A DNA stretch of 64,000 nt, taken from a virus. The notes beneath the pieces are model-generated. The model made no database searches. It was not told the origin of the DNA and was given only the letters and a program-made list of their open reading frames with translations. Where the stretch lies: IMG/VR virus record IMGVR_UViG_3300025400_000011, positions 44,883-108,882 of that record; one strand, written 5' to 3'. Of this stretch, positions 38,614-53,672 are shown in pieces. Every line of letters starts with the position of its first letter. The first letter of the stretch is position 1. The position numbers and the translations under genes were made by a program.

Positions 38614-40082
38614 TGGAAAATAAAATCATATGGGGTGCATCTGGTTTATCCCACGATGCTGCATTATCTGTAATAAAAGACGGTAAACTTGTATTTGCGT
38701 CTTCATCAGAACGCTATTCTCGTGTTAAAAATGATCTTAACTTTGACCCACTTTTAATAAGAGATGCATTAGAGTTTGGTAAACCAGACGTTATAGTATG
38801 GTACGAAAAGCCTTTTAAAAAGTTCTTAAGACGGTTAGTTGTAGATAAACTTTGGCAACCATATAGTGTAAAAGACGTATTTAAGAAGCACGAAGTACAA
38901 GCACCCATACAGTACGTAGATCATCATTTATCGCATCTATGTGCATCTCTATATACTGCACCATTTAACACGGATAAAACATTAGGATTAGTAGTGGATT
39001 CAGTAGGAGAGTTTGATACACTAACTGTGTGGGACATAGATAACGGTAAATACAAATGCATTGATAAGAGAAAATATCCAAACTCATTAGGTTTGTTTTA
39101 TTCTTCTATTACAGACTTGTTAGGTTTAAAAGCTCAAGAAGAAGAATATATTATGATGGGTATGGCAGCTTATGGTACCAATAACTATAAGAAATACTAT
39201 AACTTTTTTTTAGAAAACTTATTTGATAACGATTGTAACTTAGTTATTGATTTACGTAGAGGTTGTAGAGGTTTATTAACTAAAGAAGAAGTAGAAGCTA
39301 ATAAGTTTGATATTGCTTTAGCTGCTCAAAAAATATACGAAGATATTGTAGTAGACATTACAAAAGAGTATCTTGCTAAAACAGGTTATAAAAAGCTTAT
39401 ACTGTCTGGTGGTTGTGCACTTAACTGTACAGCTAATACTTTTCTATTAGAGTTAGTAGATGATATGTGGATATTTCCTAATCCAGGAGATTCTGGTTCT
39501 GCAGTAGGTGCTGCTCTAGCCTATTACAATCAACCGGTAGAAATGCGCAATCTCTATCTTGGTCATGATGCTCAATCTAGTGTTGATATAGATGAACTAG
39601 TAAACTATTTAGATACTAACAAAATGGCCGGTGTAATATATGGTAAAGCAGAGTTTGGTCCAAGAGCATTAGGACATCGTTCTATTTTAGCAGACCCTAG
39701 AGTACACAATATTAAAGATATTGTTAATGAAGTAAAAGGACGTGAAAAGTTTAGACCGTTTGCTCCTATTGTATTAAAAGAGCATTTTAACGAAATATTC
39801 TATAATAAGGGTACGAGTGATTCTTATCCTTACATGCAGTACACTCATATGTGTAAACGTCCAGATGTATATCCAGGTATAGTACACGTTGATGGTAGTT
39901 CTCGAGTACAAACAGTAGACGTAAACACTCCTTTTATACACCAAGTGCTTAAAAAGTGGTACGATAAGACCGGTTGTCCTATTTTACTTAATACAAGTTT
40001 AAACATAAAAGGTAGACCTTTACTTAATAGTAGAGAAGATATAAAAGAGTTTGGCCATACTAAACTAAAAATATTTGGCTAA
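38613..40082 (+). CDS. Carbamoyltransferase (NodU/CmcH/TobZ family)
   Basis: HDAA...ERYSR.K; HHLSH; GGCALNC; EFGPRALGHRSILADP; KGRE.FRPFAP; LLNTSLN. Confidence 0.92.
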   Translation: MENKIIWGASGLSHDAALSVIKDGKLVFASSSERYSRVKNDLNFDPLLIRDALEFGKPDVIVWYEKPFKKFLRRLVVDKLWQPYSVKDVFKKHEVQAPIQYVDHHLSHLCASLYTAPFNTDKTLGLVVDSVGEFDTLTVWDIDNGKYKCIDKRKYPNSLGLFYSSITDLLGLKAQEEEYIMMGMAAYGTNNYKKYYNFFLENLFDNDCNLVIDLRRGCRGLLTKEEVEANKFDIALAAQKIYEDIVVDITKEYLAKTGYKKLILSGGCALNCTANTFLLELVDDMWIFPNPGDSGSAVGAALAYYNQPVEMRNLYLGHDAQSSVDIDELVNYLDTNKMAGVIYGKAEFGPRALGHRSILADPRVHNIKDIVNEVKGREKFRPFAPIVLKEHFNEIFYNKGTSDSYPYMQYTHMCKRPDVYPGIVHVDGSSRVQTVDVNTPFIHQVLKKWYDKTGCPILLNTSLNIKGRPLLNSREDIKEFGHTKLKIFG

Positions 40083-40083
40083 T

Positions 40084-41553
40084 ATGCCTGAAAAACCACC
40101 ATTAATACATGATGCAGTACAGAGACTAGTAAATGTCAAGAAAACATTAGACACTACTAGTTCTAGTTTCTGTTTAGCTAAGTGGAATCAAGTAACTATA
40201 CATCTTACTAATGGTACTACACATAGTTGTCATCATTGCCCTGCTCATAAAATACCTTTAGACGAGCTTAAGAACAACGTTTCTGCTTTACATAACACTA
40301 GCGAAAAGAAAGAAAAACGTAAGATGATGCTCGAAGGTAAGCGTCCAGAAGAGTGTAACTTTTGCTGGCGTGTTGAAGATCTTAATAACCCAGACTTGTT
40401 TAGTGATAGAGTTAAGAAAAGTTCTAACCTCTGGAATGACAATACTATAGAGATTATACCCAAGCTACCTTGGGATACTGATGTCATACCTAAGTCGATG
40501 GAACTAGACTTTTCTAATGCTTGTAACTTTAAGTGTTTATACTGTTCACCGGTTTACTCTTCTACTTGGGCTAAAGAAATAAGAGAACATGGTCCTATAC
40601 ATGCAGGTGCATTTATTAACAACTCATTAAAGATGATAGCTATGGAGGAAAAGACTCCTATAGAAGATGAAGACAGTAACCCATACGTACAAGCATTTTG
40701 GAAATGGTTTCCTGATATACTAGAAAGCGGTCAATTAAGAGAGTTGAGAGTTACAGGCGGGGAGCCCTTATTGAGTAAAAATACGTTCAAGTTAATGGAC
40801 TTTTTTATTGAACACCCTCAACCAGAGATGGTATTCAGTGTTAACTCAAATCTTGGTGCACCAGAAGCTTCGATTACTAAGCTTATAGACAAGCTCAATA
40901 AAATAACATCAGCTAAAGCAGCTAAAAGAGTGGCCCTATACACAAGCGGTGAAGGTCACAGTGAAAGAGGCGAATACATACGTTACGGACTTAAATACGA
41001 TACATGGTTAAGTAACGTCGATCGTATACTAAAAGAATGTCCAGAAGTAGAAATGATTTTTATGTGCACATATAATGCACTATCAGTTACTTCGTTTAAA
41101 GGGTTTTTAATGGATGCATATGACTTGATACAGAAGTACACCGATCCTTATGTACGTATGCAGCCTATTATTATTAGTATACCATATCTAAGACAGCCTG
41201 AGTTTTTAAGTGCATGGAACCTTACTGAAGACTTTTTAGGTTATATAGAAGAGTGTACTGAATACATGAAAGAAAAAACTCGTAAAACTAAAAAAGATCC
41301 TGATGCACCAGAAAGATATAGTGTGGTTGAGCCAGGCTTTCCTTTATTATGTACCCAAGAAATGGAAAGAGTGCTTGAGGTCATGAAAAATGCTATAATT
41401 AACAATGTAGGCAGAAATCATGACGTTGCGGTTCTACGTAGAGCGTTTCATCAGTTTATAGATGAATGTGATAGTAGACGTAACACTAGCTTTTTAACTA
41501 CATTCCCAGAAATGGCTGATTTTTATTATTTTTGCAAAAACAACTACCCATAA
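40084..41553 (+). CDS. Radical SAM protein with N-terminal Cys-rich (twitch/SPASM-like) domain, paralogue 1
   Basis: FCLAKW...SCHHC...CNFCW; CNFKCLYC; VTGGEPLL. Confidence 0.88.
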   Translation: MPEKPPLIHDAVQRLVNVKKTLDTTSSSFCLAKWNQVTIHLTNGTTHSCHHCPAHKIPLDELKNNVSALHNTSEKKEKRKMMLEGKRPEECNFCWRVEDLNNPDLFSDRVKKSSNLWNDNTIEIIPKLPWDTDVIPKSMELDFSNACNFKCLYCSPVYSSTWAKEIREHGPIHAGAFINNSLKMIAMEEKTPIEDEDSNPYVQAFWKWFPDILESGQLRELRVTGGEPLLSKNTFKLMDFFIEHPQPEMVFSVNSNLGAPEASITKLIDKLNKITSAKAAKRVALYTSGEGHSERGEYIRYGLKYDTWLSNVDRILKECPEVEMIFMCTYNALSVTSFKGFLMDAYDLIQKYTDPYVRMQPIIISIPYLRQPEFLSAWNLTEDFLGYIEECTEYMKEKTRKTKKDPDAPERYSVVEPGFPLLCTQEMERVLEVMKNAIINNVGRNHDVAVLRRAFHQFIDECDSRRNTSFLTTFPEMADFYYFCKNNYP

Positions 41554-42170: not shown

Positions 42171-43649
42171 ATGTCACTTAATGGCCAAATGGATGGTACT
42201 CTAAAAACGGTTAAGAATAAGCTTAATGCTGTTAGCCCTAGCTTTTGCTTAGCTAAATGGAATCAGGTAACTATACATTTAAATAATGGTACTACTCATA
42301 GTTGCCATCATTGCCCTTCTCACAAAATACCTTTAGAAGAGCTTAAGAACAATCCGTCTGCTCTACACAATACAAACGAGAAAAAGAACACTCGTAAAAT
42401 GATGTTAAACGGAGAAAGACCTAAAGAGTGTAACTTTTGTTGGCGAGTAGAAGATTTAAAAGATGAAAACATATTTAGTGATAGAGTGAAAAAAAGTTCT
42501 GACCCATGGAATGATGATCGTATCGATACGGTGCCTAAGATGCCATGGGACGTTAATGTTATACCAAAGTATATCGAGTTAGACTTTTCTAATGCATGTA
42601 ACTTTAAATGTTTATACTGTTCCCCTGCTTATTCTACTAGCTGGGTAAAAGAAATAAAAGAACATGGACCTATAGAAGCTGGTAAGTTTCGAGTAAATTC
42701 TTTGCAGGCTTTAGCAGCAAAAGGAGAACTACCTTTTGATGGAGACGAAGAAGATAACCCATACATTCAAGCTTTTTGGAAATGGTTTCCAGACGTACTA
42801 GCAAGCGGAGAGTTAAGAGACATAAGAATCACAGGCGGTGAACCTTTACTCAGTAAAAATACGTTTAAGTTGATGGACTATCTTATAGACCACCCACAAC
42901 CTAATCTTATTTTTAATATTAACTCAAACTTAGGTGCACCTAAACCGTATATTGATAAACTTATTGAATATGCAAATAAACTTCACAACACAAAAGCTGT
43001 TTCTAGGGTAACTCTTTTTACTAGCGGTGAAGGTTATGGGGAAAGAGGTAACTATATAAGAACTGGTTTAGACTATAAACAATGGTATGAAAATGTAGAC
43101 CGTATTATTAGTTCTTGTCCAGCACTATACACAACATATATGTGTACATACAATGCATTATGTGTTACTTCATTTAAAGACTTTCTAAAAGATGCACTCG
43201 CTTTAATGAAAAAGCATGTAAATTACATTGATCGTTGGCATCCGATTTTATTAAGCATACCTTATATGAGAGACCCAGAGTTTTTAGCTGGCTGGGTTTT
43301 AACACCTGACTTTTTAAAGTATATTGAAGAGTGTATAGAGTACATGAAAGAAAACGAGCAGATTATTGGTCCACACCCTTTAAAGGGTACCTTACCTAAA
43401 TACGATCAATGGGAGCAACTTGTCAGGCCTGGATTTACACCATATATTATACACGATATGGAGCGAGTGTTAGAGGTTATGAAAAACGCTATTAATACTG
43501 GAGCGGGTAGAGTAACGGATTTAGCTATATTACGTCAGTCATTTCATAAGTTTATTGACGAAAGCGATAGACGCCGTGGAACCAACTTTGTAGAAACGTT
43601 CCCAGAAATGGCGGGTTTCTATTATATGTGTAAGAATGAGTATCCGTAA
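42171..43649 (+). CDS. Radical SAM protein, paralogue 2
   Basis: Same motifs as 40084..41553 with long identical stretches. Confidence 0.88.
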   Translation: MSLNGQMDGTLKTVKNKLNAVSPSFCLAKWNQVTIHLNNGTTHSCHHCPSHKIPLEELKNNPSALHNTNEKKNTRKMMLNGERPKECNFCWRVEDLKDENIFSDRVKKSSDPWNDDRIDTVPKMPWDVNVIPKYIELDFSNACNFKCLYCSPAYSTSWVKEIKEHGPIEAGKFRVNSLQALAAKGELPFDGDEEDNPYIQAFWKWFPDVLASGELRDIRITGGEPLLSKNTFKLMDYLIDHPQPNLIFNINSNLGAPKPYIDKLIEYANKLHNTKAVSRVTLFTSGEGYGERGNYIRTGLDYKQWYENVDRIISSCPALYTTYMCTYNALCVTSFKDFLKDALALMKKHVNYIDRWHPILLSIPYMRDPEFLAGWVLTPDFLKYIEECIEYMKENEQIIGPHPLKGTLPKYDQWEQLVRPGFTPYIIHDMERVLEVMKNAINTGAGRVTDLAILRQSFHKFIDESDRRRGTNFVETFPEMAGFYYMCKNEYP

Positions 43650-43664
43650 TAGCTAAGTATATAG

Positions 43665-43958
43665 ATGAGTTCCTATAAACTATTAGCTGAAAAGTATAGT
43701 CAAGTTCTAGAAGAAGAAGGTAATGATTTAGCAGCTTTATTACATAACCTAGAAAATAATATTAAGACTGTAAACAATAGGGATTTATCAAGCGCGTTTA
43801 ATCAAGTCTTATTAGCTTTAAATGCTTCTACAGATAACAACGTAAAACAAGCAGCTATTACTTTACTGAATCAACAAACTCAAATAGCTTCAGAAGAAGA
43901 TGAAGCTATAGATAATGAAAATGACAACACAACCGGTGTAAATGGTAACGGATATTGA
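43665..43958 (+). CDS. Small acidic late protein
   Basis: MSSYKLLAEKYSQVLEEE...; TAAGTA 5 nt upstream. Confidence 0.6.
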   Translation: MSSYKLLAEKYSQVLEEEGNDLAALLHNLENNIKTVNNRDLSSAFNQVLLALNASTDNNVKQAAITLLNQQTQIASEEDEAIDNENDNTTGVNGNGY

Positions 43959-43985
43959 GGCAATTTTTACTAAATAATATTATAT

Positions 43986-44684
43986 ATGGCTACCTACTAC
44001 AATTCTCAAGTAACACAAAATCAAGTTGGCAACAACCCTACCACTTATCAAGGGATTGATTGCAATATCAGCGACACGAGAGCTGCTATACTTTTCAATG
44101 TAATACCTAATCCAGTAAACAGTTTATCAGGTACAGGTAGTGCACAAGCAAACTTTACTTTAAATTACGTGAATACGGCTAATAATACCGGCGTAGAAGG
44201 TCTTTCATCTGGTACAGGTTCCATATTTGTTGACGGTGCTTATCAATGCACTACAGCAACAGGTACAGTATCTTATCTAGCAGGTGGTACATATACACAA
44301 AGCATTAGCGGTGTTGTAATTACAAATGGTGGATTAGGCTATTGGGGTCCAGGTAATGATGGTGCAGTAACTTGTACTTTCTCAGCTCCACAATCCGGTT
44401 CAAATCGCGCAACTGGTGTGCCTATTGTTGGTAACGGTAACATTATTGGCGTACAAATCACTAACACAGGTTCAGGTTATGCTAACCCAGGTTCTGCTAC
44501 AGTAACATTTTCGTCTCCAGTAGCTCACAAAATGTATTTACAAAAGCATGATTATTCTTGCTTTGAATTTACAGTACCTGCTACAGGTAGTAACGGTGGC
44601 GGCGCACAAGCTGTCACATTAACCCCAGTAGGTTATAAAGTAGAAGGTCCAACAAAGCGCCGCAAGTATCTCTTAGGTTACTAA
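43986..44684 (+). CDS. Putative virion structural protein
   Basis: Two I.GV.ITN.G.GY repeats typical of myovirus structural proteins; TAAATA 9 nt upstream. Confidence 0.65.
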   Translation: MATYYNSQVTQNQVGNNPTTYQGIDCNISDTRAAILFNVIPNPVNSLSGTGSAQANFTLNYVNTANNTGVEGLSSGTGSIFVDGAYQCTTATGTVSYLAGGTYTQSISGVVITNGGLGYWGPGNDGAVTCTFSAPQSGSNRATGVPIVGNGNIIGVQITNTGSGYANPGSATVTFSSPVAHKMYLQKHDYSCFEFTVPATGSNGGGAQAVTLTPVGYKVEGPTKRRKYLLGY

Positions 44685-44685
44685 G

Positions 44686-46740
44686 TTATTTCGACGTAGC
44701 TCTATAAACTCCGTCCCAATCAGCTCCAAGGTTAGCTCCTTGGAGCTCTTTTATTCTCTCTAGCATAGCCTCGTAGTACTTTTTGAGTTCAGGATTGTAT
44801 TTCTTTAACGCTGTAGCTAGTTGTATGGCTTCATCCCATTTTTGAGTTCTATAATCTATTAAGAACGCTTCGTGCATTCTGTTTACTTCTGTAACCATCT
44901 CGGTTAAGCTGTTTTCTAATATAGTGTAAATTCTAACACCTTCTTTTTTACCCTTAACTGCTATACAGTCAAGTTCAAAACATTGATAGTCGTTTTTAAC
45001 GTATTTGTGCGTTACCGGTCCAACAATAATACGCACCCCATACGGTTTTGATTGTCCTTCTAGACGAGAAGCCAAGTTGACACCATCCCCTAAGCATGTA
45101 TAATCAAAGCGCTGAGTACTACCCATATTACCTACTACTACAGAAGCAGTATTGATACCTAAACCCATACCAAATGCTGGTATACCTTCTTTAGTTATTT
45201 CTTCATTAAACGTGTCAAGTCTCTTTAGCATTTGCATAGCAGTCTTAACAGCATTACGAGCATGATCTGGATCATCTAAAGGAGCGTTCCAGAAAGCCAT
45301 TTGTGCGTCACCAATATATTTGTCGAGGGTACCGTCGTTATCTAATATGGCTTGAGTCATAGCAGTCATATAACGATTCATTATCATTGTCAGACCTTGT
45401 ACGTCTTTACCATAATGCTCTGATATAGTTGTGAAGCCTCTTACATCAGTAAACATAATAGATAACTCTCTTTCATCTCCACCAAGCTTTAACAAACCTG
45501 GATTTTTTTGTAGTTTCTCTACTAATGCTGCACTTAAATAAGTACCAAATTGCTTCTTGATCTGCTGCTTTAACTTAAACTCCATTACAAATCTAAAGAA
45601 TATAGCACCTACCCAAGGCAGCAATACCGCTAAAGTAGGCCAAGTATAATCCGTAAGATATCCGTAATTAGCAAATAAGCGTAATCCAATAAAATAAGGT
45701 ACACATAAGAATGCTGTGATTAGTAGGCCATTTAGGATATACCCCAAATAACAAGCAGCAACAATAAGAATAATAGCAAGTATAATACCACCTGTAAGCT
45801 CATATAGATCGAATGTTGAGGGCCTTTGTAATCTGCTGCTATCTATCAACATTTGCAAGGTTTGAGCAGATACCTCATACCCTTGGGAAATACCAACAGG
45901 AGTAGCTACAGTATTATTTAGGCCTTCTGCAGTTAAAGCAATGAATACTATCTTATCTTTAACAATGGACCAGTTAGCATCTGCAAATGAAACCGAATCA
46001 AATGTGTATTTAAAGTTTATCCACACTCTACCGTTAGCATCAGTAGCGATAGGTGGCGTGCCTTTAACTCTAATAGCCTGTACTCCAGCTTGATCTACTT
46101 TAGCTTGATAAGACTCTTCTCCACCAAACATTCTTAGTGCTTCTAAAGGTATAGTGGGGTAGGTTTCTTTCTTTACTTGTACTACTAACGGTAAACGTCT
46201 CGTAACTGAGTCTATTTCAGGGGTTGTTAACAACATACCGACACCGCCCGACGACTGACCTATCTCTTTAGTTGGTCCAATAGCGGCAGGGTACGTATAT
46301 AACCAATCACCTAAGTCTCCACCTATTGCTGCTAAACCTCTTGGTACAGGCTGTCCTTTACCTTTTTGTGCTGCTGATTGTGCAGTTATTACTGGATATT
46401 TTTGTAAAGTACTATTAAATATTGTATCACCACCTAATCTATCTTTCTCTGAAAATAGAATAGGCATAACAACTAACTGCGCACCATTATTAAATGCTTT
46501 TTCCAAACCTTCGCTCAATACTGCTCTGGACATCGGCCACTGGCCAAACTTGTCTAACGTCGCCTCGTCTATGGTTACTACAACAATATTATTACTTTTT
46601 ACTTTACTTTGTTGCCTTTGATAATAATCTAATCCTTTTAAGCGGGCTGTTTCAATAAAAAACGGATCCTTTATTCTTAATATAACTAGTCCAGCAAGGA
46701 TAGCAAACCCAGTGAGCATTATCTTATATGTATGTTTCAC
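44686..46740 (-). CDS. CHASE2-domain class III adenylate cyclase (start revised to GTG 46740)
   Basis: CHASE2 (IVVVTIDEATLDKFGQWPMSR, D.VTRRLP), three TM helices, cyclase IMFTDVRGFT, DKYIGDA, FDYT.LGDGVNLASRLEG, VKGK; Lys/Asp-Thr signature points to ATP; minus-strand TAAATA 5 nt upstream of GTG. Confidence 0.92.
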   Translation of the reverse strand: MKHTYKIMLTGFAILAGLVILRIKDPFFIETARLKGLDYYQRQQSKVKSNNIVVVTIDEATLDKFGQWPMSRAVLSEGLEKAFNNGAQLVVMPILFSEKDRLGGDTIFNSTLQKYPVITAQSAAQKGKGQPVPRGLAAIGGDLGDWLYTYPAAIGPTKEIGQSSGGVGMLLTTPEIDSVTRRLPLVVQVKKETYPTIPLEALRMFGGEESYQAKVDQAGVQAIRVKGTPPIATDANGRVWINFKYTFDSVSFADANWSIVKDKIVFIALTAEGLNNTVATPVGISQGYEVSAQTLQMLIDSSRLQRPSTFDLYELTGGIILAIILIVAACYLGYILNGLLITAFLCVPYFIGLRLFANYGYLTDYTWPTLAVLLPWVGAIFFRFVMEFKLKQQIKKQFGTYLSAALVEKLQKNPGLLKLGGDERELSIMFTDVRGFTTISEHYGKDVQGLTMIMNRYMTAMTQAILDNDGTLDKYIGDAQMAFWNAPLDDPDHARNAVKTAMQMLKRLDTFNEEITKEGIPAFGMGLGINTASVVVGNMGSTQRFDYTCLGDGVNLASRLEGQSKPYGVRIIVGPVTHKYVKNDYQCFELDCIAVKGKKEGVRIYTILENSLTEMVTEVNRMHEAFLIDYRTQKWDEAIQLATALKKYNPELKKYYEAMLERIKELQGANLGADWDGVYRATSK

Positions 46741-46745
46741 TTGTA

Positions 46746-46768
46746 TATTTACAAATAACCAATAAATA
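46746..46768. promoter_or_regulatory. Back-to-back divergent late promoters
   Basis: TATTTA 46746-46751 (drives cyclase) and TAAATA 46763-46768 (drives ATG 46776). Confidence 0.65.
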
Positions 46769-46775
46769 GACTTAC

Positions 46776-48266
46776 ATGTACAAGAGAAAACCAGGCGAAT
46801 CATTAACAGAGTATAGAGATAGAGTTCTTAATACTATTAGTACAAGTTTTTGTGCTGCTAAGTGGTATAATGCTACTATATGGCTTGGTAATGGTACAAC
46901 TACAAGCTGCCATCATCCTCCAGCACAAGATATTCCTTTAGAGGAGATAAAAGACAATCCTTCTGCCATTCATAATACGTCGCATAAAAAGTTGATGCGC
47001 AAGATGATGCTTGAGGGTAAGAAACCAGCTGAGTGTGAGTATTGCTGGAGAGTGGAAGGTATGGGACCTGATAAAGTTAGTGATAGAGTGTTTAAATCTA
47101 TCATCTATGATGAAGAAGACGTACAAAAGTTAGCTACCTTACCTTGGGACGCTAATGTTGATCTTAAAACATTAGAGATTAGTTTTGATAGAACATGTAA
47201 TCTAGCTTGTTCTTATTGTAACTCAAGTTTTTCTACTACCTGGGGTAAAGACATTAAAATTAACGGTCCATATAAAAATCTTGTTAGTGACGGTTCCGGT
47301 ACATACAAGTTAGATGGTAGTTGGGCAGACACATATAAAACTAACCCAGAAGATAATCCTTATTTACAATCTTTCTGGAAGTGGTGGGATGCTAGCTTAA
47401 ACAAGAACTTAGAAGAACTGAGAGTTACGGGCGGAGAGCCTTTATTAAGCCCTGAAACGTGGAAGCTGATGGATAGGTTTGAAACTCAGCAACTAGACAT
47501 GAGATTATCTATTAATAGTAACTTAATGCCTAGAGAAGAGCTTATTACTAAGTTTATTGAGAAGTCTAAAAACATTAAAAATATTCAGGTATATACTAGC
47601 TGTGAAACAGTAGGCGCTCAAGCAGAGTATATTAGAGATGGGTTAAAGTATGATTACTGGAAAGGTAACTTAACACGTCTAATCACTGAAGGTAACTTTA
47701 GAGATCTTAACGTGATGATGACTATCAACAGTCTTTGTTTGTTTAGTATTACTGATTTTCTTGATGAGATGTACGGACTTAAAGAGTTAGCAAAGAATAC
47801 TGATAAACGAAAGCAGTTGTTATTAAGTCTTAATATTTTAAGATTTCCAAGCTTTCAAAGCCCGTTAGCATTACCTGGACATATTAAAGATTATTGCAGA
47901 ACTAGATTACAAACTTGGTATGACGCAAGTAAAACTCGTCCACTATGGCACGTAGATGAACTAGCTAGTATTGAACGTCTTATAGACTACTTAGTAGCAG
48001 TAGATGCACCGCACCGCAGAACAAGCAATAAGATTACCTTATGGAGAGATTTTAAGTCATTCTATAAACAGTATGATCAACGTAGAGGTAAAAGCATATC
48101 AGTATTCCCAAGCATTTTAACAGACTGGTTTGCACAGTTACCAGATACTGATACATCTACTATGACTGATGAGCAAATAGATGAAACAGCTCTTAAAGAA
48201 GGTTGGATCTCACACTCCGAGAACCCAGCTCGTCCAGGATCTAGTCCAGATAACTCTTCTTTATAA
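46776..48266 (+). CDS. Radical SAM protein, paralogue 3
   Basis: FCAAKW...SCHHP...CEYCW; CNLACSYC; VTGGEPLL; YDQRRG. Confidence 0.88.
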   Translation: MYKRKPGESLTEYRDRVLNTISTSFCAAKWYNATIWLGNGTTTSCHHPPAQDIPLEEIKDNPSAIHNTSHKKLMRKMMLEGKKPAECEYCWRVEGMGPDKVSDRVFKSIIYDEEDVQKLATLPWDANVDLKTLEISFDRTCNLACSYCNSSFSTTWGKDIKINGPYKNLVSDGSGTYKLDGSWADTYKTNPEDNPYLQSFWKWWDASLNKNLEELRVTGGEPLLSPETWKLMDRFETQQLDMRLSINSNLMPREELITKFIEKSKNIKNIQVYTSCETVGAQAEYIRDGLKYDYWKGNLTRLITEGNFRDLNVMMTINSLCLFSITDFLDEMYGLKELAKNTDKRKQLLLSLNILRFPSFQSPLALPGHIKDYCRTRLQTWYDASKTRPLWHVDELASIERLIDYLVAVDAPHRRTSNKITLWRDFKSFYKQYDQRRGKSISVFPSILTDWFAQLPDTDTSTMTDEQIDETALKEGWISHSENPARPGSSPDNSSL

Positions 48267-48271
48267 AGTAC

Positions 48272-48313
48272 TTGATTTTGTCATAATAGGTACGATAATA
48301 CCTGTATTATGAC
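48272..48313 (+). promoter_or_regulatory. Sigma70-like promoter TTGATT-N16-GATAAT inside an extended inverted repeat covering the start codon
   Basis: GTCATAATA-GGTA / TACC-tg-TATTATGAC around CGATAA. Confidence 0.6.
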
Positions 48314-48497
48314 ATTTTTAGAAAAACTTAAACACATTATTATTGGGTTTGCGTCAGTCATTATTTTAATCAATATACCATTTGGTATATATTTTGGTTT
48401 TAAAGGCATTGTCACTAACAACGATTGGATGTCTACCGCTGGTACTTTTCAAGTATTAACTGGTACATATATGTACCTCTTCTTAACTAAAGAATAA
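48309..48497 (+). CDS. Small two-helix membrane protein
   Basis: 62 aa, hydrophobic. Confidence 0.6.
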   Translation: MTFLEKLKHIIIGFASVIILINIPFGIYFGFKGIVTNNDWMSTAGTFQVLTGTYMYLFLTKE

Positions 48498-48498
48498 T

Positions 48499-48579
48499 AT
48501 GGTCGTTTCTTATATAACAGCATTAGTAATAGTTGCTCTAGTAATAGCAGCTTTAATAAAATATCTACCAAGAGATTAA
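48499..48579 (+). CDS. 26-aa membrane peptide (not in ORF track)
   Basis: MVVSYITALVIVALVIAALIKYLPRD fills the gap with 1-nt spacers each side. Confidence 0.55.
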   Translation: MVVSYITALVIVALVIAALIKYLPRD

Positions 48580-48580
48580 T

Positions 48581-49006
48581 ATGAACAATAAAATTACTTG
48601 TACCAGGTATCACGACCTATCAGTTGGACACAGAGTGTGTGGTCAAGGCGGTAAGTGTGAAAATCTTCACGGTCATAACTACCGTATACACCTCACAGTA
48701 GAAGCAGAACAGTTAGATACTGTTGGTCGAGTTATGGACTTTTCTGTTATTAAAGACAAGTTTGTTATATGGTTAGAGCAGCAATGGGATCATAAGTTCT
48801 TGGTTTGGGAAAACGATCCGTTTACAGATACATTAAAAAACTTAAACCCAGAAGGTGTTGTTGTAGTGCCTTTTAACCCAACTGCAGAAAACTTAGGTCA
48901 GCACTTAGTCAACGTTATTGGACCTCAGCAACTTGCTGGTACTAATGTTAAGCTTGTTAAGGTTAATATTGAAGAGACTCGTAAGTGTAGTGTTACTGTT
49001 GAGTAA
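48581..49006 (+). CDS. queD: 6-carboxy-5,6,7,8-tetrahydropterin synthase
   Basis: GHR...CENLHGHNY...VMDF...DH...PTAENL...EET. Confidence 0.9.
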   Translation: MNNKITCTRYHDLSVGHRVCGQGGKCENLHGHNYRIHLTVEAEQLDTVGRVMDFSVIKDKFVIWLEQQWDHKFLVWENDPFTDTLKNLNPEGVVVVPFNPTAENLGQHLVNVIGPQQLAGTNVKLVKVNIEETRKCSVTVE

Positions 49007-49943
49007 TATTCATTAACACGCCATCTCCAGAGCCCTGCTTTGCTTTAGCGGTACCGCCTGTGTACTTGTATATAACTTGAGCATTAGTAGTTTTAGGTAC
49101 AGATATATGTAGTACGTTTCCACCTACTGATGACTTTAATATAGCATCAGTGTTTTCTTCAACGAATACAAACTTGTTAGGATCGATAACCTCGATAACC
49201 TTAATATCTTCTGGTTTAATACCGTTATTGTTGAGATTATCTTTTTCGTGGCTATCAGTTTTTTGTTTTGCTACATCAAATACTGGTTTAGGACTATCAA
49301 GTAATAGGTTATTACCAACACCACCCTCATCCATATTAAGAATAACAGGAGGAGAAGGCATTGTTTGAGCGGAAGCTACATAGGTACCTTCAAATGCTTT
49401 ATCTAAAGTAACTTTACCTGCTGCTGTAGATACGTCAATACGACCAACTATGTACTGACCGTTTCTTCTATCTAATGCCGGTAGTAGAATAACCAAGCTT
49501 CTACCCATTTCATCTACAGCGAGACTCACATCAGTACCACGAACAGCTATACTCGCTGTAGGTGTAGTAACTGCAACACTATTGCTATTATGATGAGCTA
49601 ACTTACCTGAAGTATATCTCAATGTACCTAAAGCAGCCTTAAAGCCTATTTTACCGTTACCTGTGGAAGGATCATACACAAACGTATCTATTAAGAGTTT
49701 ACTGTGCTCTGTTACTTTTACTTCTGTATCATCTGCAAACTTTATATTAGTACGAGCTTCAAGTGTCTCCACAGTATCATTCATTTCTACCCCAGTCTTT
49801 AACTCGCACTTAATAAATTCACTACCTCTGGTTATACGGGTAGGTCCTGTAATAGAAGTAATCTGTCCTGCAGCACCAAATGCTACAGCACATGACAATA
49901 CTGTTAGTAGAAAGAATAGTATTGTAAGAGTAACAAGTTTCAT
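48993..49943 (-). CDS. Exported FecR-domain protein
   Basis: Signal peptide; D.VET...F.D.T.V.V.E.S.L.ID.FVYDP...G.LRYTSG...TPTASIAVRGT; minus-strand TAAATA 5 nt upstream. Confidence 0.85.
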   Translation of the reverse strand: MKLVTLTILFFLLTVLSCAVAFGAAGQITSITGPTRITRGSEFIKCELKTGVEMNDTVETLEARTNIKFADDTEVKVTEHSKLLIDTFVYDPSTGNGKIGFKAALGTLRYTSGKLAHHNSNSVAVTTPTASIAVRGTDVSLAVDEMGRSLVILLPALDRRNGQYIVGRIDVSTAAGKVTLDKAFEGTYVASAQTMPSPPVILNMDEGGVGNNLLLDSPKPVFDVAKQKTDSHEKDNLNNNGIKPEDIKVIEVIDPNKFVFVEENTDAILKSSVGGNVLHISVPKTTNAQVIYKYTGGTAKAKQGSGDGVLMNITQQ

Positions 49944-49958
49944 AGTAATATTTACATT

Positions 49959-49982
49959 AAAAAAGCCCGCCTAAGCGGGCTT
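49959..49982 (-). terminator. Intrinsic terminator after curlin-like gene
   Basis: AAGCCCGC/GCGGGCTT stem; A-run on + strand is the U-tract on - strand. Confidence 0.8.
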
Positions 49983-50001
49983 GTGTCTCGAACAAATCCT
50001 A

Positions 50002-50685
50002 TTATGGACTCGACTGAGAGATTGTTACATTGTTGGAACTACCAGTTAAGTTATATTGCAACGTTTGTGTTGTCGTACCGGATTGAGATACGGTCAAGTT
50101 GTTGCTATTACCGTTAACTGTTACTGTCTGGTTATGCCCAGATGTGCCTGTTACTAAACCTGTCTGAGTTAAAGCAAAAGTATTACTATTGCCAGCAACT
50201 GTATAGTCAAGTTTGTTATAGGAACCATTTGCTACACCAATGTCAAATGAGTTACTGTTACCAGCAACGTCAAATGCAAAGGTACCGTGAGCTGTAGTAG
50301 CTTGTGCTGTACCAGTATGTGTTCCGTCATTATTAAATACCATTGAGTTAGAACCACCAGCAAACACTGCACTAAAGTTATTATTAGCACCGTTCATAAA
50401 CAGCTTTTGAGTGTTGCTATCGCCAGTGTTCCATAACTTAAATGTGTAGTTGTCTCCAGTTAAATTGAAGTCAATAGCATTGTTATCACCAATTTGCTTG
50501 ATGTTGAAGGTACCATTATCACCGGTAATGGTGGATTGGGACCCGTTTGCGCCGATCCTGTTAGATGCGCCTGTTTGAGTAACAGTGTCTGTAGCAGAGG
50601 TCGAAATCTGATCCAAGTAGATCTGATTTTGAGCCTTTACCGAGACAGCTAATACTACAAAGAGTAATAGTGTTAAGTATTTCAT
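50002..50685 (-). CDS. Secreted curlin-like beta-solenoid protein
   Basis: Signal peptide (..VKA|Q); ~11-aa half repeats ending G-x-x-N (QTGASN, QIGDNN, NTGDSN, VAGNSN, VNGNSN, LTGSSN); downstream of csgF-csgG. Confidence 0.7.
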   Translation of the reverse strand: MKYLTLLLFVVLAVSVKAQNQIYLDQISTSATDTVTQTGASNRIGANGSQSTITGDNGTFNIKQIGDNNAIDFNLTGDNYTFKLWNTGDSNTQKLFMNGANNNFSAVFAGGSNSMVFNNDGTHTGTAQATTAHGTFAFDVAGNSNSFDIGVANGSYNKLDYTVAGNSNTFALTQTGLVTGTSGHNQTVTVNGNSNNLTVSQSGTTTQTLQYNLTGSSNNVTISQSSP

Positions 50686-50705
50686 AGGGGTGTTGCCAAT
50701 ACTTA

Positions 50706-51533
50706 TTACTTTTTACTATTAAAGTTATTACTTCCGTTAACTTTAAACTTCCATAACCCTTTGTGCTCTCCCTGATGGATAAGTTCTATAACACTTTGAT
50801 CTATAGCGGCTCTCAGTGCTAGATTTACTGGCTCATTACCAGCTGCACCAAGTTCTGCTTCACCATATTTTGTTCCATCACTTGAAAATGCCAATGCATT
50901 ACCACTTATTGTAGCACTATATATTGTTTTGGTAACAGCAACGGATATTAATACTTCTCCGGTGTTAGTGCTTACCAACCTTAAACTTGTTGTAATAACA
51001 TCTTTGGAGTATTGTACATTAGCGCCAATACCTAATATGCTTGCCCCATACCCGCCTGTTTGTACATCTGTATCATAACCTATAATACCACCTTCAGCAA
51101 TAACACCTGCAAATAACATTGGTCTTAGTGCACCAGGGGTCTTGTCACTTAAAAAGTCTTCTCTTGTTTGACGATAAAGAGTTCTCTCTTTAATTAAGTC
51201 GTCAAGGTTAGCTCTTTCTAATACTTTAAACCACTTACCGTAGCTTGCCTGTTGTAAAGAGTCTATAAGCCAACTCTCAGCACCTTGAGTTACAGCAGAA
51301 CTGAACAAAGCTAAATTAGTAGCTGTCTTACGTTGACCGGTTTTATCTTCGAACCTATACACAGCAACTGTCATAGTGGGACCGTCAATAGGCGGTAATG
51401 CCTTTAACTGTAAGGACAAAGGACTCTCTTGTACTTCTGGTTTCTCTATGATACGCTTATGCTGAGCAGCTACTCTTAAAGTAGAGCACCCTGAAGTAAG
51501 GAGCAGCAGAAATGCTAAAACAAAATACTTCAT
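50706..51533 (-). CDS. csgG: Curli secretion channel CsgG-family lipoprotein
   Basis: Lipobox LTSGC; VAVYRFEDKTGQRK...FSSAVTQGA...WFKVLER..LDDLIKER...EGGIIGYD...LRLVST.TGEVL.SV...KTI...NEPV.LALRAAI. Confidence 0.92.
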   Translation of the reverse strand: MKYFVLAFLLLLTSGCSTLRVAAQHKRIIEKPEVQESPLSLQLKALPPIDGPTMTVAVYRFEDKTGQRKTATNLALFSSAVTQGAESWLIDSLQQASYGKWFKVLERANLDDLIKERTLYRQTREDFLSDKTPGALRPMLFAGVIAEGGIIGYDTDVQTGGYGASILGIGANVQYSKDVITTSLRLVSTNTGEVLISVAVTKTIYSATISGNALAFSSDGTKYGEAELGAAGNEPVNLALRAAIDQSVIELIHQGEHKGLWKFKVNGSNNFNSKK

Positions 51534-51988
51534 TAACCCCCTCCTGGTACAGTTAGTAGTGTACTAATTGGTATGGTCAACGTTGAAGTTGAGTTAGCAA
51601 CAGGATCAAATATACTTAAAGTAGCACTACCATTATCAACACTCCAATTAACATAAGCCCCGCCTGGTAAGTTAAATGTACCAAACGATGGACCGTTTGT
51701 CTGGAATATTTGATTAGTTAACTGAGCGGCTATTTGAGAATAAATACGAGCATTTAAGTTACCAATAAACTGATTAATAGGGGTGTTTTGTGCCGCTGCA
51801 GCTGCTGTTGCTGCTGTGGCTTCTGCTTGAGCCTGAATGGTTACCTTACGATTATATGCTAAAGATTCTATTGTGAGTTCGTGATTAGAATACCCAACAC
51901 CGCTAAAAGCAGGAGACTTAAATTGGAAAGTCTGTTGTGTTGCGTTGGCAAGACTTGCCATAAATGCTAATAATAGCAGGTATTTCAT
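51533..51988 (-). CDS. csgF: Curli assembly accessory protein CsgF-like
   Basis: Signal peptide then FQFKSPAFSG (CsgF F.NP.FGG equivalent); QF...L..RIYSQIA.QL; coupled to csgG. Confidence 0.78.
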   Translation of the reverse strand: MKYLLLLAFMASLANATQQTFQFKSPAFSGVGYSNHELTIESLAYNRKVTIQAQAEATAATAAAAAQNTPINQFIGNLNARIYSQIAAQLTNQIFQTNGPSFGTFNLPGGAYVNWSVDNGSATLSIFDPVANSTSTLTIPISTLLTVPGGG

Positions 51989-51993
51989 ATCTA

Positions 51994-52007
51994 TATTTAG
52001 CTAAGTA
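51994..52007. promoter_or_regulatory. Back-to-back divergent late promoters TATTTA-GC-TAAGTA
   Basis: Minus copy is 5 nt upstream of csgF ATG; plus copy precedes the small ORF and cNMP-binding gene. Confidence 0.6.
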
Positions 52008-52027
52008 TGTGTACACCCCTAACACCT

Positions 52028-52219
52028 ATGAACGAACAATTCACTAGAACTCTACCTGTATACTTTCCTTCCAAGGACTTTATGACAGTTCTTAAACCAG
52101 ACAATAAAATCTTATTGACTGATATACCAGCAAGCAAGTTACGCTCTAAACAGAACCAAATGTACGTGTTAGCTGATACTTCTGAGGGCTCAGTGCTTGT
52201 ACCAGTAGATAATGGTTAA
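52028..52219 (+). CDS. Small hypothetical protein (start 52028 or 52007)
   Basis: ATG 52007 overlaps the promoter, so ATG 52028 is preferred. Confidence 0.5.
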   Translation: MNEQFTRTLPVYFPSKDFMTVLKPDNKILLTDIPASKLRSKQNQMYVLADTSEGSVLVPVDNG

Positions 52220-52874
52220 AGAGAAAAAAGCTAAGAAGATTAAAATTAAGCCCGAAGAGATAATGACTTCGGCGTTATTTGCTGGAGTTAATCCAAAGGT
52301 TATTAAGAAGATAGCTACCTTTCCAAATGCATTAGAACATCAACCTGGAGAGGTTATTATAAAAGAGGGTGATATCGGCAACTTTATGTTCGTAGTATTA
52401 CAGGGACAAGTAGATGTAACTAAAGCTGCAGGTGGTAAAGAGGTCTTCCTTACTACATTAGGGCCTGGCACGTTTGTAGGAGAAGGTGCTTTAGTATCCG
52501 GTGCACCTCGTAACGCTACTGTTAAAGCTAAAACCCCAGTTAAGATTGCATACTTTGATAGAGCTGCTTATAACGCTACAATTTCAGCTGATCCGATTAT
52601 ATCAGATACACTGATGAAAGTGTATAAGGAGCGTGTAAAGGATCAAGTTAAAAAGGTCAATATAGCTAAATCAAAAGCATTTATTATTTCTGCTGCAGTT
52701 GCTTTAATACCGTTGATTCAAACATTTTTGCCTCATATACCTCATATAAAAGATTTATATAATATGCTACCGCCAGGAACAGTCGCGTTATTAGGACCGG
52801 GTGGTGCTGCTTTAGCTTATAAACTACAACAAGGTGATATGGCAAGTTTAGTAGGTAAACTTGATAAACTCTGA
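52212..52874 (+). CDS. Cyclic-nucleotide-binding domain protein with C-terminal hydrophobic helices
   Basis: GEVIIKEGDIG..MFVVLQGQVDV...LGPGTFVGEGAL...PRNATVKA phosphate-binding cassette; no CRP HTH. Confidence 0.88.
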   Translation: MVKEKKAKKIKIKPEEIMTSALFAGVNPKVIKKIATFPNALEHQPGEVIIKEGDIGNFMFVVLQGQVDVTKAAGGKEVFLTTLGPGTFVGEGALVSGAPRNATVKAKTPVKIAYFDRAAYNATISADPIISDTLMKVYKERVKDQVKKVNIAKSKAFIISAAVALIPLIQTFLPHIPHIKDLYNMLPPGTVALLGPGGAALAYKLQQGDMASLVGKLDKL

Positions 52875-52907: not shown

Positions 52908-53672
52908 ATGAAGAAAATCTTAATAATGGGATTACCTGGCGCTGGCAAAACAACTCTAGCAATAGAGTTAGCAAAACTGCTTAACGCTGTACACTTTAAC
53001 GCTGATGAAATACGCAAAGAGATTAATAAGGATCTTAAGTTTTCCGTGGAGGATCGATTGGAGCAAGCCCGAAGAATGGGATTGCTTTGTGATATCGTTA
53101 CTCGTTCTGGGCAATTTGCTGTGGCTGATTTTATTTGTCCTATTCCTGAAACGAGAGCTGCTTTTGGGGACGCATTTATAGTTTGGGTAAATAGAACACC
53201 GGTTAGAGACTTTGCCGATACAACTAAGCTATTTGTACCACCAGATGATCCAGATGTAGTAGTAAATGATGAAGGTTCAGCTCTATACTGGGCTACTAAA
53301 ATTAAAAAACAGCTTATTCCTACCTTTAATTCGAAAGCATCTACAGCATTTATGTTAGGTCGTTATCAACCATTTCACGATGGCCACAAAGCACTTATTG
53401 TAGAAGGTATTAATCGGGTCGGTCAAGTTTGTATTGCTATTAGAGATACTCAGGGCACTGATGAAAAGAATCCTTTCTCGTTTGAAGAGGTAGAAGCTAA
53501 TATACGTAAAGGTATGCTTGATTATGAAGGCAAATACACTATAATACGTGTTCCTAACATTACTAACATATTCTATGGTAGAGATGTAGGTTATAAGATT
53601 GAGCAGATTGATCTCGATAAGAAATTACAAGAAATATCAGCAACTAAAATACGCAACGAAATATTAAAGTAA
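52908..53672 (+). CDS. APS-kinase-like P-loop domain fused to HxGH nucleotidyltransferase
   Basis: GLPGAGKTT...NADEIR...FS.EDR; GRYQPFHDGH...ISATKIR. Confidence 0.8.
   Translation: MKKILIMGLPGAGKTTLAIELAKLLNAVHFNADEIRKEINKDLKFSVEDRLEQARRMGLLCDIVTRSGQFAVADFICPIPETRAAFGDAFIVWVNRTPVRDFADTTKLFVPPDDPDVVVNDEGSALYWATKIKKQLIPTFNSKASTAFMLGRYQPFHDGHKALIVEGINRVGQVCIAIRDTQGTDEKNPFSFEEVEANIRKGMLDYEGKYTIIRVPNITNIFYGRDVGYKIEQIDLDKKLQEISATKIRNEILK

Follow-up and report, generated by a model that had tools for sequence, protein, structure and literature searches.

Gene content of the locus

The 64,000-nucleotide stretch analysed here (the window; positions 44,883 to 108,882 of IMG/VR record IMGVR_UViG_3300025400_000011) belongs to an uncultured myophage whose 108.9-kb record (108,882 bases; CheckV completeness 58%) carries genes, those for tail-fibre, carbamoyltransferase and radical SAM proteins among them, that are typical of large aquatic T4-like phages. 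Between positions 44,686 and 52,874 of the window lies a block of genes for a curli-like type VIII secretion system (T8SS) and for cyclic-nucleotide signalling (Table 1). On the minus strand, the unit opens with csgF and continues with csgG, a curlin-like gene, a gene for a FecR-fold protein, a slot of variable content and the gene of a CHASE2 adenylate cyclase, while a gene for a cyclic nucleotide monophosphate (cNMP)-binding protein diverges from csgF on the plus strand. A first-pass annotation of this DNA had described these genes as a linked chain. All the genes that it named are present, but the block is not contiguous, since plus-strand genes for a radical SAM protein, a 62-aa product and a QueD-like protein split FecR from the cyclase.

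Gene identities were assigned by Pfam domain searches, in which the cut-off for FecR is 24 bits and in which six of the families expected from that annotation (CHASE2, Guanylate_cyc, FecR, CsgG, CsgF and cNMP_binding) were matched; export and membrane features were judged by hydropathy only. The core csgF-csgG-curlin-FecR-cyclase region is already known, and its linkage has been published (PMC9599517). What goes beyond that paper is the pairing of FecR with CHASE2, the phage-only family of cNMP proteins encoded beside csgF, and the independent recombination of the blocks that make up the region.

Table 1. Features of the T8SS-cyclase block, in window coordinates
Feature	Position	Strand	Evidence or remark
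CHASE2-sensor class III adenylate cyclase, 705-aa open reading frame (ORF)	44686..46803	-	CHASE2 137.7 bits (6.7e-40); Guanylate_cyc 71.7 bits (7.8e-20)
Radical SAM paralogue	46776..48266	+	Pfam Radical_SAM 24.9 bits, under cut-off
62-aa hydrophobic ORF (orf62), candidate gene	48309..48497	+	ORF list; no Pfam match
QueD / 6-pyruvoyl-tetrahydropterin synthase-like gene	48581..49006	+	Pfam PTPS 1.5e-25
Exported FecR-fold protein, 316 aa	48993..49943	-	Pfam FecR 31.4 bits
Terminator-like G+C hairpin and T run	49963..49982	-	between curlin-like gene and FecR
Secreted curlin-repeat (CsgA/B-like) protein, 227 aa, Q-x-G-x-x-N repeats	50002..50685	-	family profile
CsgG-like outer-membrane lipoprotein pore subunit, 275 aa	50706..51533	-	Pfam CsgG 161 bits, 3.2e-47
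CsgF-like pore cap / nucleation factor, 151 aa	51533..51988	-	Pfam CsgF 41.1 bits, 2.5e-10
70-aa ORF (orf70), overlaps cNMP gene start	52007..52219	+	no Pfam or PADLOC match
cNMP-binding protein, 220 aa	52212..52874	+	Pfam cNMP_binding 75.9 bits (2.4e-21)

The export cassette and its putative sensors

The minus-strand csgF, csgG and curlin-like genes proposed by the first-pass annotation are all upheld, CsgG and CsgF by Pfam and the curlin at the level of the family profile only. The CsgG protein is 44-45% identical to its counterparts in phages HTVC008M and Melnitz, matches the NCBIfam CsgG model at 146.7 bits, under its equivalog cut-off, and has a predicted N-terminal signal sequence ending in LTSGC. 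By itself, the curlin-like protein has no significant Pfam match and fails Curlin_rpt, a model whose cut-off is exceeded by the homologues of Melnitz and HTVC008M. A profile of 17 members of its family, on the other hand, matches a solved curlin-repeat protein (8c50_A, E 9.7e-10) and CsgA (8enq_A, E 0.011), and hydropathy predicts a signal sequence on this protein too. As stated previously, csgE and csgC are missing, with no match for either in the 108.9-kb record (58% complete) and a positive control in E. coli. CsgG, CsgF and a curlin-repeat subunit are therefore common to the canonical curli system and the phage block, whereas CsgE and CsgC were not found in the phage record.

The cyclase ORF possibly starts at an internal ATG (position 46719, M29). 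Its product is laid out as a first transmembrane (TM) helix (residues 26-44), a periplasmic CHASE2 domain (45-338), three further TM helices (339-409), a catalytic domain (446-628) and a helical tail to residue 705, so that, as in CyaD1-type cyclases, a periplasmic CHASE2 domain lies between TM segments and is followed by a class III catalytic domain. Across 51 phage cyclases, D453, K495, D499, R580 and a KGK motif are invariant, and these residues comprise both metal-binding aspartates, the adenine-specifying lysine and the transition-state arginine; position 569 is D, T or S. The position of the transition-state asparagine is N in 30 of the homologues, as it is in the window, and S in the other 21. 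The ATP-type signature noted on first inspection hence extends across the phage family and, judged from this alignment, the cyclase is under purifying selection as an adenylate cyclase.

In the FecR-fold protein, a signal-like helix (residues 2-19) precedes a beta domain (26-200), a disordered linker (210-256) and a C-terminal beta domain (261-314). An alignment of 17 members shows a conserved N-domain (about 25-220) and a conserved C-domain of about 70 aa, joined by a variable linker of low complexity. The AlphaFold2 (AF2) model of the N-domain (26-200), with a predicted local distance difference test score (pLDDT) of about 90, superposes on the PupR CCSSD (6ovk_R; Z 15.5, root-mean-square deviation (rmsd) 2.6, 135 aa) and on the anti-sigma factor 4m0n (Z 13.9), with rmsd values of 2.6-2.8 over 135 aa across the two structures. 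This is the conserved periplasmic-domain fold of the FecR/PupR anti-sigma regulators, seen in 6ovk in complex with the PupB NTSD. Unlike those regulators, the phage protein has a cleavable-looking signal sequence instead of a TM anchor and a different C-terminal domain in place of STN, and no cytoplasmic anti-sigma domain or TM anchor was found by alignment, hydropathy or AF2. Its partner gene differs as well, being a CHASE2 cyclase as opposed to the extracytoplasmic function (ECF) sigma factor and TonB-dependent transducer that accompany FecR and PupR. The Pfam match above the cut-off and the N-terminal signal sequence bear out the description of an exported FecR protein and, on the predicted model, this protein is soluble, either periplasmic or secreted, with a fold known for protein-protein contact in trans-envelope signalling. 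Its interpretation as an iron-citrate FecR regulator was rejected, given that the anti-sigma domain and the TM anchor are missing and that the cellular relatives pair with CHASE2 (see below).

The C-domain of the FecR-fold protein yields only weak immunoglobulin-like matches in fold searches (Z below 3). It ends in G.G...I.I.Q, which resembles the last curlin-like repeat, at a level that is not significant (hhalign probability 8%, E 0.004, 28 columns). A separate similarity, that of the "cell surface anchoring domain" 5ix9 (Z 7.3), concerns the N-terminal half of the FecR domain and not the C-domain, and is too weak to build on.

A phage-specific cNMP-binding family beside csgF

The cNMP protein combines a cyclic-nucleotide-binding (CNB) domain (residues ~10-140), which has an intact phosphate-binding cassette (FVGEGALVSGAPRNAT), with a C-terminus in which hydropathy identifies two hydrophobic segments, one strong (156-174) and the other weaker (185-201). 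Pfam and NCBIfam find no helix-turn-helix (HTH), their matches ending at about residue 150, and this agrees with the initial description of a membrane-tethered cNMP protein lacking the HTH of CRP, the tether itself being a hydropathy prediction. The protein thus shares with the CRP/FNR receptors a CNB domain with an intact cassette, but instead of their HTH it has hydrophobic helices. In the AF2 model the CNB domain reaches a pLDDT of about 90, and two helices (155-175 and 188-207) are predicted with low confidence. The family comprises 81 clusters of 213-220 aa, all of them metagenomic. Its cassette, F-x-G-E-G-A-L-V-S-G-A-P-R-N-A-T, varies little, if at all, among members down to 41% identity, and GEGAL...PRNAT is invariant in an alignment of 15 members. 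No relatives of the hydrophobic tail were detected in an Atlas search, and no second CRP-like or other cNMP protein was found elsewhere in the record.

Within IMG/VR, the cNMP gene lies head-to-head with csgF in seven of the nine informative loci (the window, L004, L005, L006, L075, L076 and L080, down to 40% identity), the exceptions being L073 and L079. A larger set was drawn from JGI metagenomes, where 65 of 80 cNMP loci were informative, some on contigs that also belong to the IMG/VR set; csgF is adjacent and divergent in 46 of these 65, at distances of 28-462 nt and identities of 37-99%, and the cyclase is found whenever the contig extends far enough. In a maximum-likelihood tree of 56 members, the csgF-adjacent state occurs on both sides of the midpoint root, including the early branches L201 and L206, and it requires six changes against 13.3 with shuffled labels, from which we conclude that the adjacency is old and mostly retained. 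As far as the sequences surveyed go, the candidate cNMP receptor is confined to one mostly lake subclade, lake origin being taken from sample names, which suggest Trout Bog.

The small orf70 that overlaps the start of the cNMP gene is kept only in the closest relatives, with 82-99% identity in L004, L005, L161, L164, L173 and L176. A tblastn search gave no match to it in L006, L075, L076 and L080, where the gap between csgF and the cNMP gene amounts to about 30-110 nt.

Linkage across phages and the published viral T8SS region

Zaragoza-Solas 2020 was the first to draw attention to curli genes in pelagimyophages (PMC7029224), and Wittmers 2022 described in podo- and myo-pelagiphages a T8SS cluster that, unlike the T8SS operons of bacteria, includes FecR, a "histidine kinase" (HK) and an adenylate cyclase (PMC9599517). 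That study reported the region at all 65 GOV2.0 stations and read FecR as an iron regulator; CHASE2 was not named and no cNMP protein was mentioned (PMC9599517). Pelagibacter phage HTVC008M (gp014-019) and Methylophilales phage Melnitz (gp99-104) both carry csgF-csgG-curlin-FecR-curlin-cyclase as one co-directional block, and the module proteins of the window are 28-45% identical to theirs.

Alignment of CsgG returned at least 554 relatives in IMG/VR, and the best 80 loci were compared. Wherever the flank suffices, the core genes lie together on one strand without exception: CsgF in 80 of 80, the curlin-like gene in 71 of 71, FecR in 62 of 62 and the cyclase in 31 of 31. The distance between FecR and the cyclase ranges in these 31 loci from 270 to 5739 nt, and the 2.2-kb gap of the window falls inside this range. 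The neighbourhood is thus conserved, and the suggestion of the first-pass annotation that the block is not a relic biofilm operon is well served by a multi-gene unit with such complete linkage.

The pelagiphage region and the window share their genes, order and orientation, and neither has CsgE or CsgC. Two differences stand out. In the window, the slot between FecR and the cyclase holds the opposite-strand radical SAM, orf62 and QueD genes instead of a second curlin; and the divergent orf70 and cNMP genes replace two small genes upstream of csgF. The latter encode paralogous proteins of about 92 aa, each with an N-terminal TM helix, a coiled coil and the motif ALIDRIRMLDNDLIRL, and their place is either ahead of csgF or, on the other strand, behind the cyclase (e.g. 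Melnitz gp97/gp98, L001:17666-18304; HTVC008M gp011/012, L002:10104-10666; L087:8965-9516). They adjoin csgF in 41 of 77 loci and are present somewhere in the locus in 55 of the 77. To judge by their position, they are probably the "HK" of Wittmers 2022, although Pfam finds no kinase domain in them. They were not found in the window, in the rest of the 108.9-kb record or in the cNMP-type relatives; in the loci examined here they never share a locus with the cNMP protein, and a third group of loci has neither.

Cellular relatives of the FecR/CHASE2 pair

In a search of 401 Alphaproteobacteria genomes with the phage FecR-like, CHASE2 and CsgG proteins, FecR-like matches were obtained in 134 genomes and CHASE2 matches in 178, and at least 28 genomes have the two on one contig, within about 0.3-10 kb of each other. 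All 13 pair loci that were fetched have the FecR-like gene beside that of a CHASE2 protein. Ten of these proteins are CHASE2 cyclases that align with all or most of the phage enzyme, eight of them in a single stretch that runs to residue 705 at 32-35% identity; the other three align over the CHASE2 part only. At one alphaproteobacterial pair locus, a cNMP-like gene lies 1.5 kb off. CsgG, for its part, is present in 58 of the 401 genomes, but it comes close to one of the CHASE2 or FecR matches listed only on phage contigs in one metagenome-assembled genome (MAG), and seven bacterial csgG loci that were fetched contain no FecR or cyclase within 10 kb. By these comparisons, FecR and the CHASE2 cyclase form a conserved alphaproteobacterial sensor pair and not an iron regulator. 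Since the pair exists in Alphaproteobacteria and is absent from bacterial csgG loci, the phage block is a fusion of two cellular modules. This origin agrees with the observations of Wittmers 2022 on bacterial T8SS operons, and contradicts the iron-regulator reading of FecR.

A cellular precedent for trans-envelope cyclic AMP (cAMP) signalling, as invoked in the first-pass annotation, does exist. In S. meliloti, the CHASE2 cyclases CyaD1, CyaD2 and CyaK depend on NsrA, a beta-barrel protein of the outer membrane, and their signal passes to Clr, a cAMP receptor (PMC7529298, PMC13001267). The cyaD1 locus holds clr and smc02178 (PMC4222275), and the Clr target smc02177 encodes a FecR-domain protein (PMC5498481), which gene numbering alone would place beside cyaD1. 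With that proviso, CHASE2 cyclase, FecR-domain protein and cAMP receptor come together in S. meliloti as they do in the phage. The two systems differ at both ends: Clr is a CRP-type receptor with an HTH and the outer-membrane partner is NsrA, with no curlin, whereas the phage has a CNB domain with a hydrophobic tail and CsgG/CsgF. The pairing appears to be general, as an exported FecR-domain protein also adjoins a CHASE2 sensor in the "BiofilmReg" operon of Burkholderia and in the PA4035/PA4036-type pair of P. aeruginosa (PMC5192318). In these cases the CHASE2 sensor is a histidine kinase, the FecR protein carries LysM and there is no T8SS, whereas the output of the phage pair is a cyclase.

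In many Alphaproteobacteria, FecR-like domains are found within open frames of 1,000-6,900 aa, some of them no more than about 10 kb from a CHASE2 gene (e.g. G271:C1:2360134, G092:C2:222049, G389:C1:160938 and G300:C13:163579). Together with the likeness to 5ix9, these long frames hint at a link between the FecR/CHASE2 pair and giant surface proteins.

Mosaicism of the block and its variable slot

Comparison with individual relatives reveals that the parts of the block do not share a single history. With respect to L005, identity amounts to 94% for the cyclase and 73% for the cNMP protein, whereas CsgF, CsgG, the curlin and FecR reach only 52-66% (FecR 54%). The pattern is reversed with respect to L164, where the T8SS and FecR genes are 93-99% identical (FecR 95%) and the cyclase only 74% (CHASE2 86%, catalytic part 62%); against L188, CHASE2 is 92% identical and FecR 52%. 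As read from these identities, the cyclase block and the T8SS/FecR block recombine independently. The mosaicism is sharp (43826-46739 against L005; 48993-51988 against L164), patches of 92-99% identity abutting patches of 50-70%, and one breakpoint lies inside the cyclase gene, between its CHASE2 and catalytic parts. The exported proteins (FecR and the curlin-like protein) are the most divergent in this comparison.

The slot between FecR and the cyclase, in which QueD converges on FecR with a 14-nt overlap, is equally changeable. In the nearest relatives, L161 and L164, it holds QueD alone, 100% identical, with the radical SAM gene absent; the insertion measures 2.2 kb in the window and 3.8 kb in L173. 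Because slot content varies in this way among the nearest relatives, the radical SAM gene, orf62 and QueD are best regarded as cargo and not as parts of the module.

Promoter-like motifs

The first-pass annotation had assigned a phage late promoter to each unit. No copy of TATAAATA, the canonical late promoter of T4, occurs from 44 to 53 kb of the window, but a shorter motif, NTAAATA (often CTAAATAT), is enriched about six-fold within 60 nt 5' of the start codons of the window, with 13 occurrences observed against 2 expected. It mostly lies at -11 to -16 from the start codon (e.g. those at 1961, 12947, 16343, 43986, 49943(-), 51988(-), 57522 and 58768). Motifs of this type precede csgF (GCTAAATAT), FecR (TGTAAATAT) and the inserted radical SAM gene, and GTAAATA stands 33 nt upstream of the internal ATG of the cyclase ORF. 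The assignment thus holds, in this modified form, for csgF, FecR and the internal start of the cyclase, and does not hold for orf70 and the cNMP gene. NTAAATA is so near the ATG that transcripts would carry very short leaders or none, and no Shine-Dalgarno sequence was seen in the stretches examined before the FecR, csgF and cNMP start codons.

A putative envelope-to-cytoplasm cAMP circuit

On balance, we incline slightly towards the view that the block encodes a self-contained envelope-to-cytoplasm cAMP circuit, as a variant of the pelagiphage-type viral curli region; the broader proposal of a trans-envelope cAMP system, already put forward in the first-pass annotation, is plausible. According to this scheme, an infected cell would gain an outer-membrane CsgG/CsgF pore and curlin-like subunits, and the periplasmic FecR-fold protein would serve the CHASE2 domain as co-sensor, a role suggested by the cellular pairs. 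FecR and CHASE2 would then couple the state of the envelope or periplasm (the status of pore or fibre, or matter entering through the pore) to cytoplasmic cAMP synthesis, and the phage protein consisting of a CNB domain and a predicted hydrophobic hairpin would read this cAMP at the inner membrane. Its tail would constitute the output, be it membrane permeabilisation, lysis timing or control of a membrane partner, and the radical SAM, orf62 and QueD genes would be passengers in the slot between FecR and the cyclase, which is prone to recombination. The more specific suggestion of FecR/CHASE2 sensing the curlin-like protein as its ligand is unsupported. Judged by its predicted domains, the cNMP protein is the strongest candidate yet for a receiver of phage-made cAMP.

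Few gene blocks of aquatic phages that still await an explanation are as widespread as the viral curli region. Earlier work on it had yielded a cyclase but nothing to receive the signal; its lake-phage variant offers a candidate receiver that is small and has 150 N-terminal residues predicted to be soluble. Such a candidate opens the questions of what role phage-made cAMP plays and of whether FecR/CHASE2 senses the outer-membrane device, and a FecR protein acting as CHASE2 co-sensor, not as iron regulator, would correct the published functional reading.

Several observations weigh against the proposed circuit. CHASE2 does not co-vary with FecR or with the T8SS genes, and the identity patterns give no sign of FecR-CHASE2 co-evolution. 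With the two blocks recombining independently, any contact between FecR and CHASE2 must use conserved surfaces, and no positive sign of an interface was obtained. The receiver is also far from universal. The first-pass annotation expected both signalling genes to accompany csgFG: the cyclase does so wherever the flank suffices and the cNMP gene adjoins csgF in most of the loci of its own family, but 19 of the 65 informative cNMP loci have no T8SS in the flank and only one of the 80 CsgG-selected loci has the cNMP gene. No member of the cNMP family is known from cultured phages, the complete genomes of HTVC008M and Melnitz included. Since the receptor is absent from most phages with T8SS and cyclase, the module must be able to work without it. 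No NTAAATA motif lies ahead of orf70 or the cNMP gene, which, lacking the motif of csgF and FecR, may be expressed at another time. Finally, the hydrophobic tail is modelled with a pLDDT of only 42-57, even if low confidence is to be expected for membrane segments folded without a membrane.

Among the alternatives, the one that retains a sizeable minority of our belief combines the proposals of Wittmers 2022 and Zaragoza-Solas 2020, whereby curli-like fibres serve aggregation ("sibling capture") or block superinfection, the cyclase and FecR do no more than regulate the cassette or host physiology by way of the cAMP receptors of the host, FecR having a link to iron, and the cNMP protein is an unrelated neighbour. 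A complete export set with signal-peptide-bearing curlin-repeat subunits is what a fibre would need, and the curlin gene having a terminator of its own fits high expression; expression in ocean metatranscriptomes has been published, together with arguments for such a role (PMC9599517, PMC7029224), and most module-bearing phages do without a cNMP protein of their own. On the other hand, clumping was not seen for Melnitz (PMC9004378), and the FecR-fold protein lacks both an anti-sigma part and a TM part, its cellular relatives pairing with CHASE2, not with iron transporters. Moreover, the head-to-head arrangement of the cNMP gene and csgF is kept across 37-99% identity, which is hard to account for in an unrelated neighbour.

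Two further proposals concern lysis. Within the circuit that we favour, it can be imagined that what is reported is superinfection, fibre assembly or contact with neighbours, and that cAMP gates the CNB-hairpin protein to permeabilise or depolarise the inner membrane, thereby setting the timing of lysis. We put this forward tentatively, as an outside chance; if true, a holin-like protein gated by cAMP would be seen for the first time, and the viral T8SS would acquire its first assigned function. The other proposal, which we deem improbable, extends the discussion of CsgGF as a possible lysis-timing pore by Buchholz 2022 (PMC9004378): CsgG/CsgF would be a repurposed gated pore, the CNB-hairpin protein a cAMP-gated holin- or pinholin-like, or antiholin-like, protein, and the block a device for timing lysis, or lysis inhibition upon superinfection. 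The architecture of the cNMP protein, a CNB domain to which only one or two hydrophobic helices are added, is compatible with this idea, as is the logic of cyclase plus CNB-fused effector shared, at the domain level only, with Pycsar. Nonetheless, no lysis genes were identified beside the block, whose flanks encode glycosyltransferases, an APS-kinase-like protein and radical SAM enzymes, and the tail has no detectable relatives. This proposal is, besides, a special case of the output step of the cAMP circuit and not an independent model.

The likeness to Pycsar also raises the prospect of a role in defence or counter-defence with no link to the T8SS, either as a Pycsar-like abortive module or with the CNB protein as a sponge or decoy for host cyclic-nucleotide immune signals. 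PADLOC does match the CNB domain to the CNB part of PycTIR/effector proteins (47 bits) and the catalytic domain to PycC (86 bits), and a class III-type cyclase and a CNB domain fused to a small effector part are found in both systems. These matches, however, cover generic CNB and class III cyclase domains only; a membrane CHASE2 cyclase with an adenine-type lysine and Asp/Thr/Ser is unlike the cytosolic pyrimidine cyclases; and a sponge would have no need of a membrane anchor. Pycsar is, furthermore, a system of host defence islands, whereas the genes considered here belong to a phage and to a T8SS context, the cNMP gene adjoining csgF and lying 5.4 kb from the cyclase. Membership in Pycsar was rejected because the matches remain at the domain level, the cyclase is a membrane receptor with adenine-type residues and the two genes are this far apart, and we give a defence role very little credence. 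Least credible of all is the absence of any functional coupling, with the genes as passengers co-transferred in a hypervariable island; the mosaic nature of the island, the cargo inserted in the block and the independent recombination of the cyclase and T8SS blocks might suggest as much, but linkage and order are complete for FecR and the cyclase across myo- and podophages (PMC9599517), active sites are conserved and the cNMP-csgF adjacency has been kept over deep divergence.

Neighbouring genes and further observations

The radical SAM gene of the slot is one of three paralogues of about 490 aa on the plus strand of the window (40075-41553, 42171-43649 and 46776-48266), which are 36-62% identical to their relatives and sit with carbamoyltransferase, glycosyltransferase and QueD genes. 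A related contig, L012 (14074-21829), has four such paralogues just downstream of its cyclase. On the other flank of the block, downstream of the cNMP gene, a plus-strand gene (52908-53672) encodes a protein whose N-terminal domain is of the APS-kinase/P-loop kinase type and which has a weak match of cytidylyltransferase-like character. Conservation of this protein amounts to 98-100% in relatives in which the genes around it share only about 55-75% identity, and in L079, L215 and L217 the APS-kinase-like gene is upstream, not downstream, of the cNMP gene.

A scan of MAG contigs with the cyclase profile matched only phage-like contigs binned into MAGs. Short module-bearing phage contigs (L010-L022) occur in species-representative MAGs labelled as Bacteroidetes, Flavobacteriaceae, Rhodobacteraceae and Pirellulales, and one MAG (G004) contains five CsgG-bearing contigs (C87, C129, C173, C200 and C240). 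The module-bearing phage contigs in MAGs are likely binning contaminants, and they would mislead a census of "bacterial" T8SS-cyclase loci.

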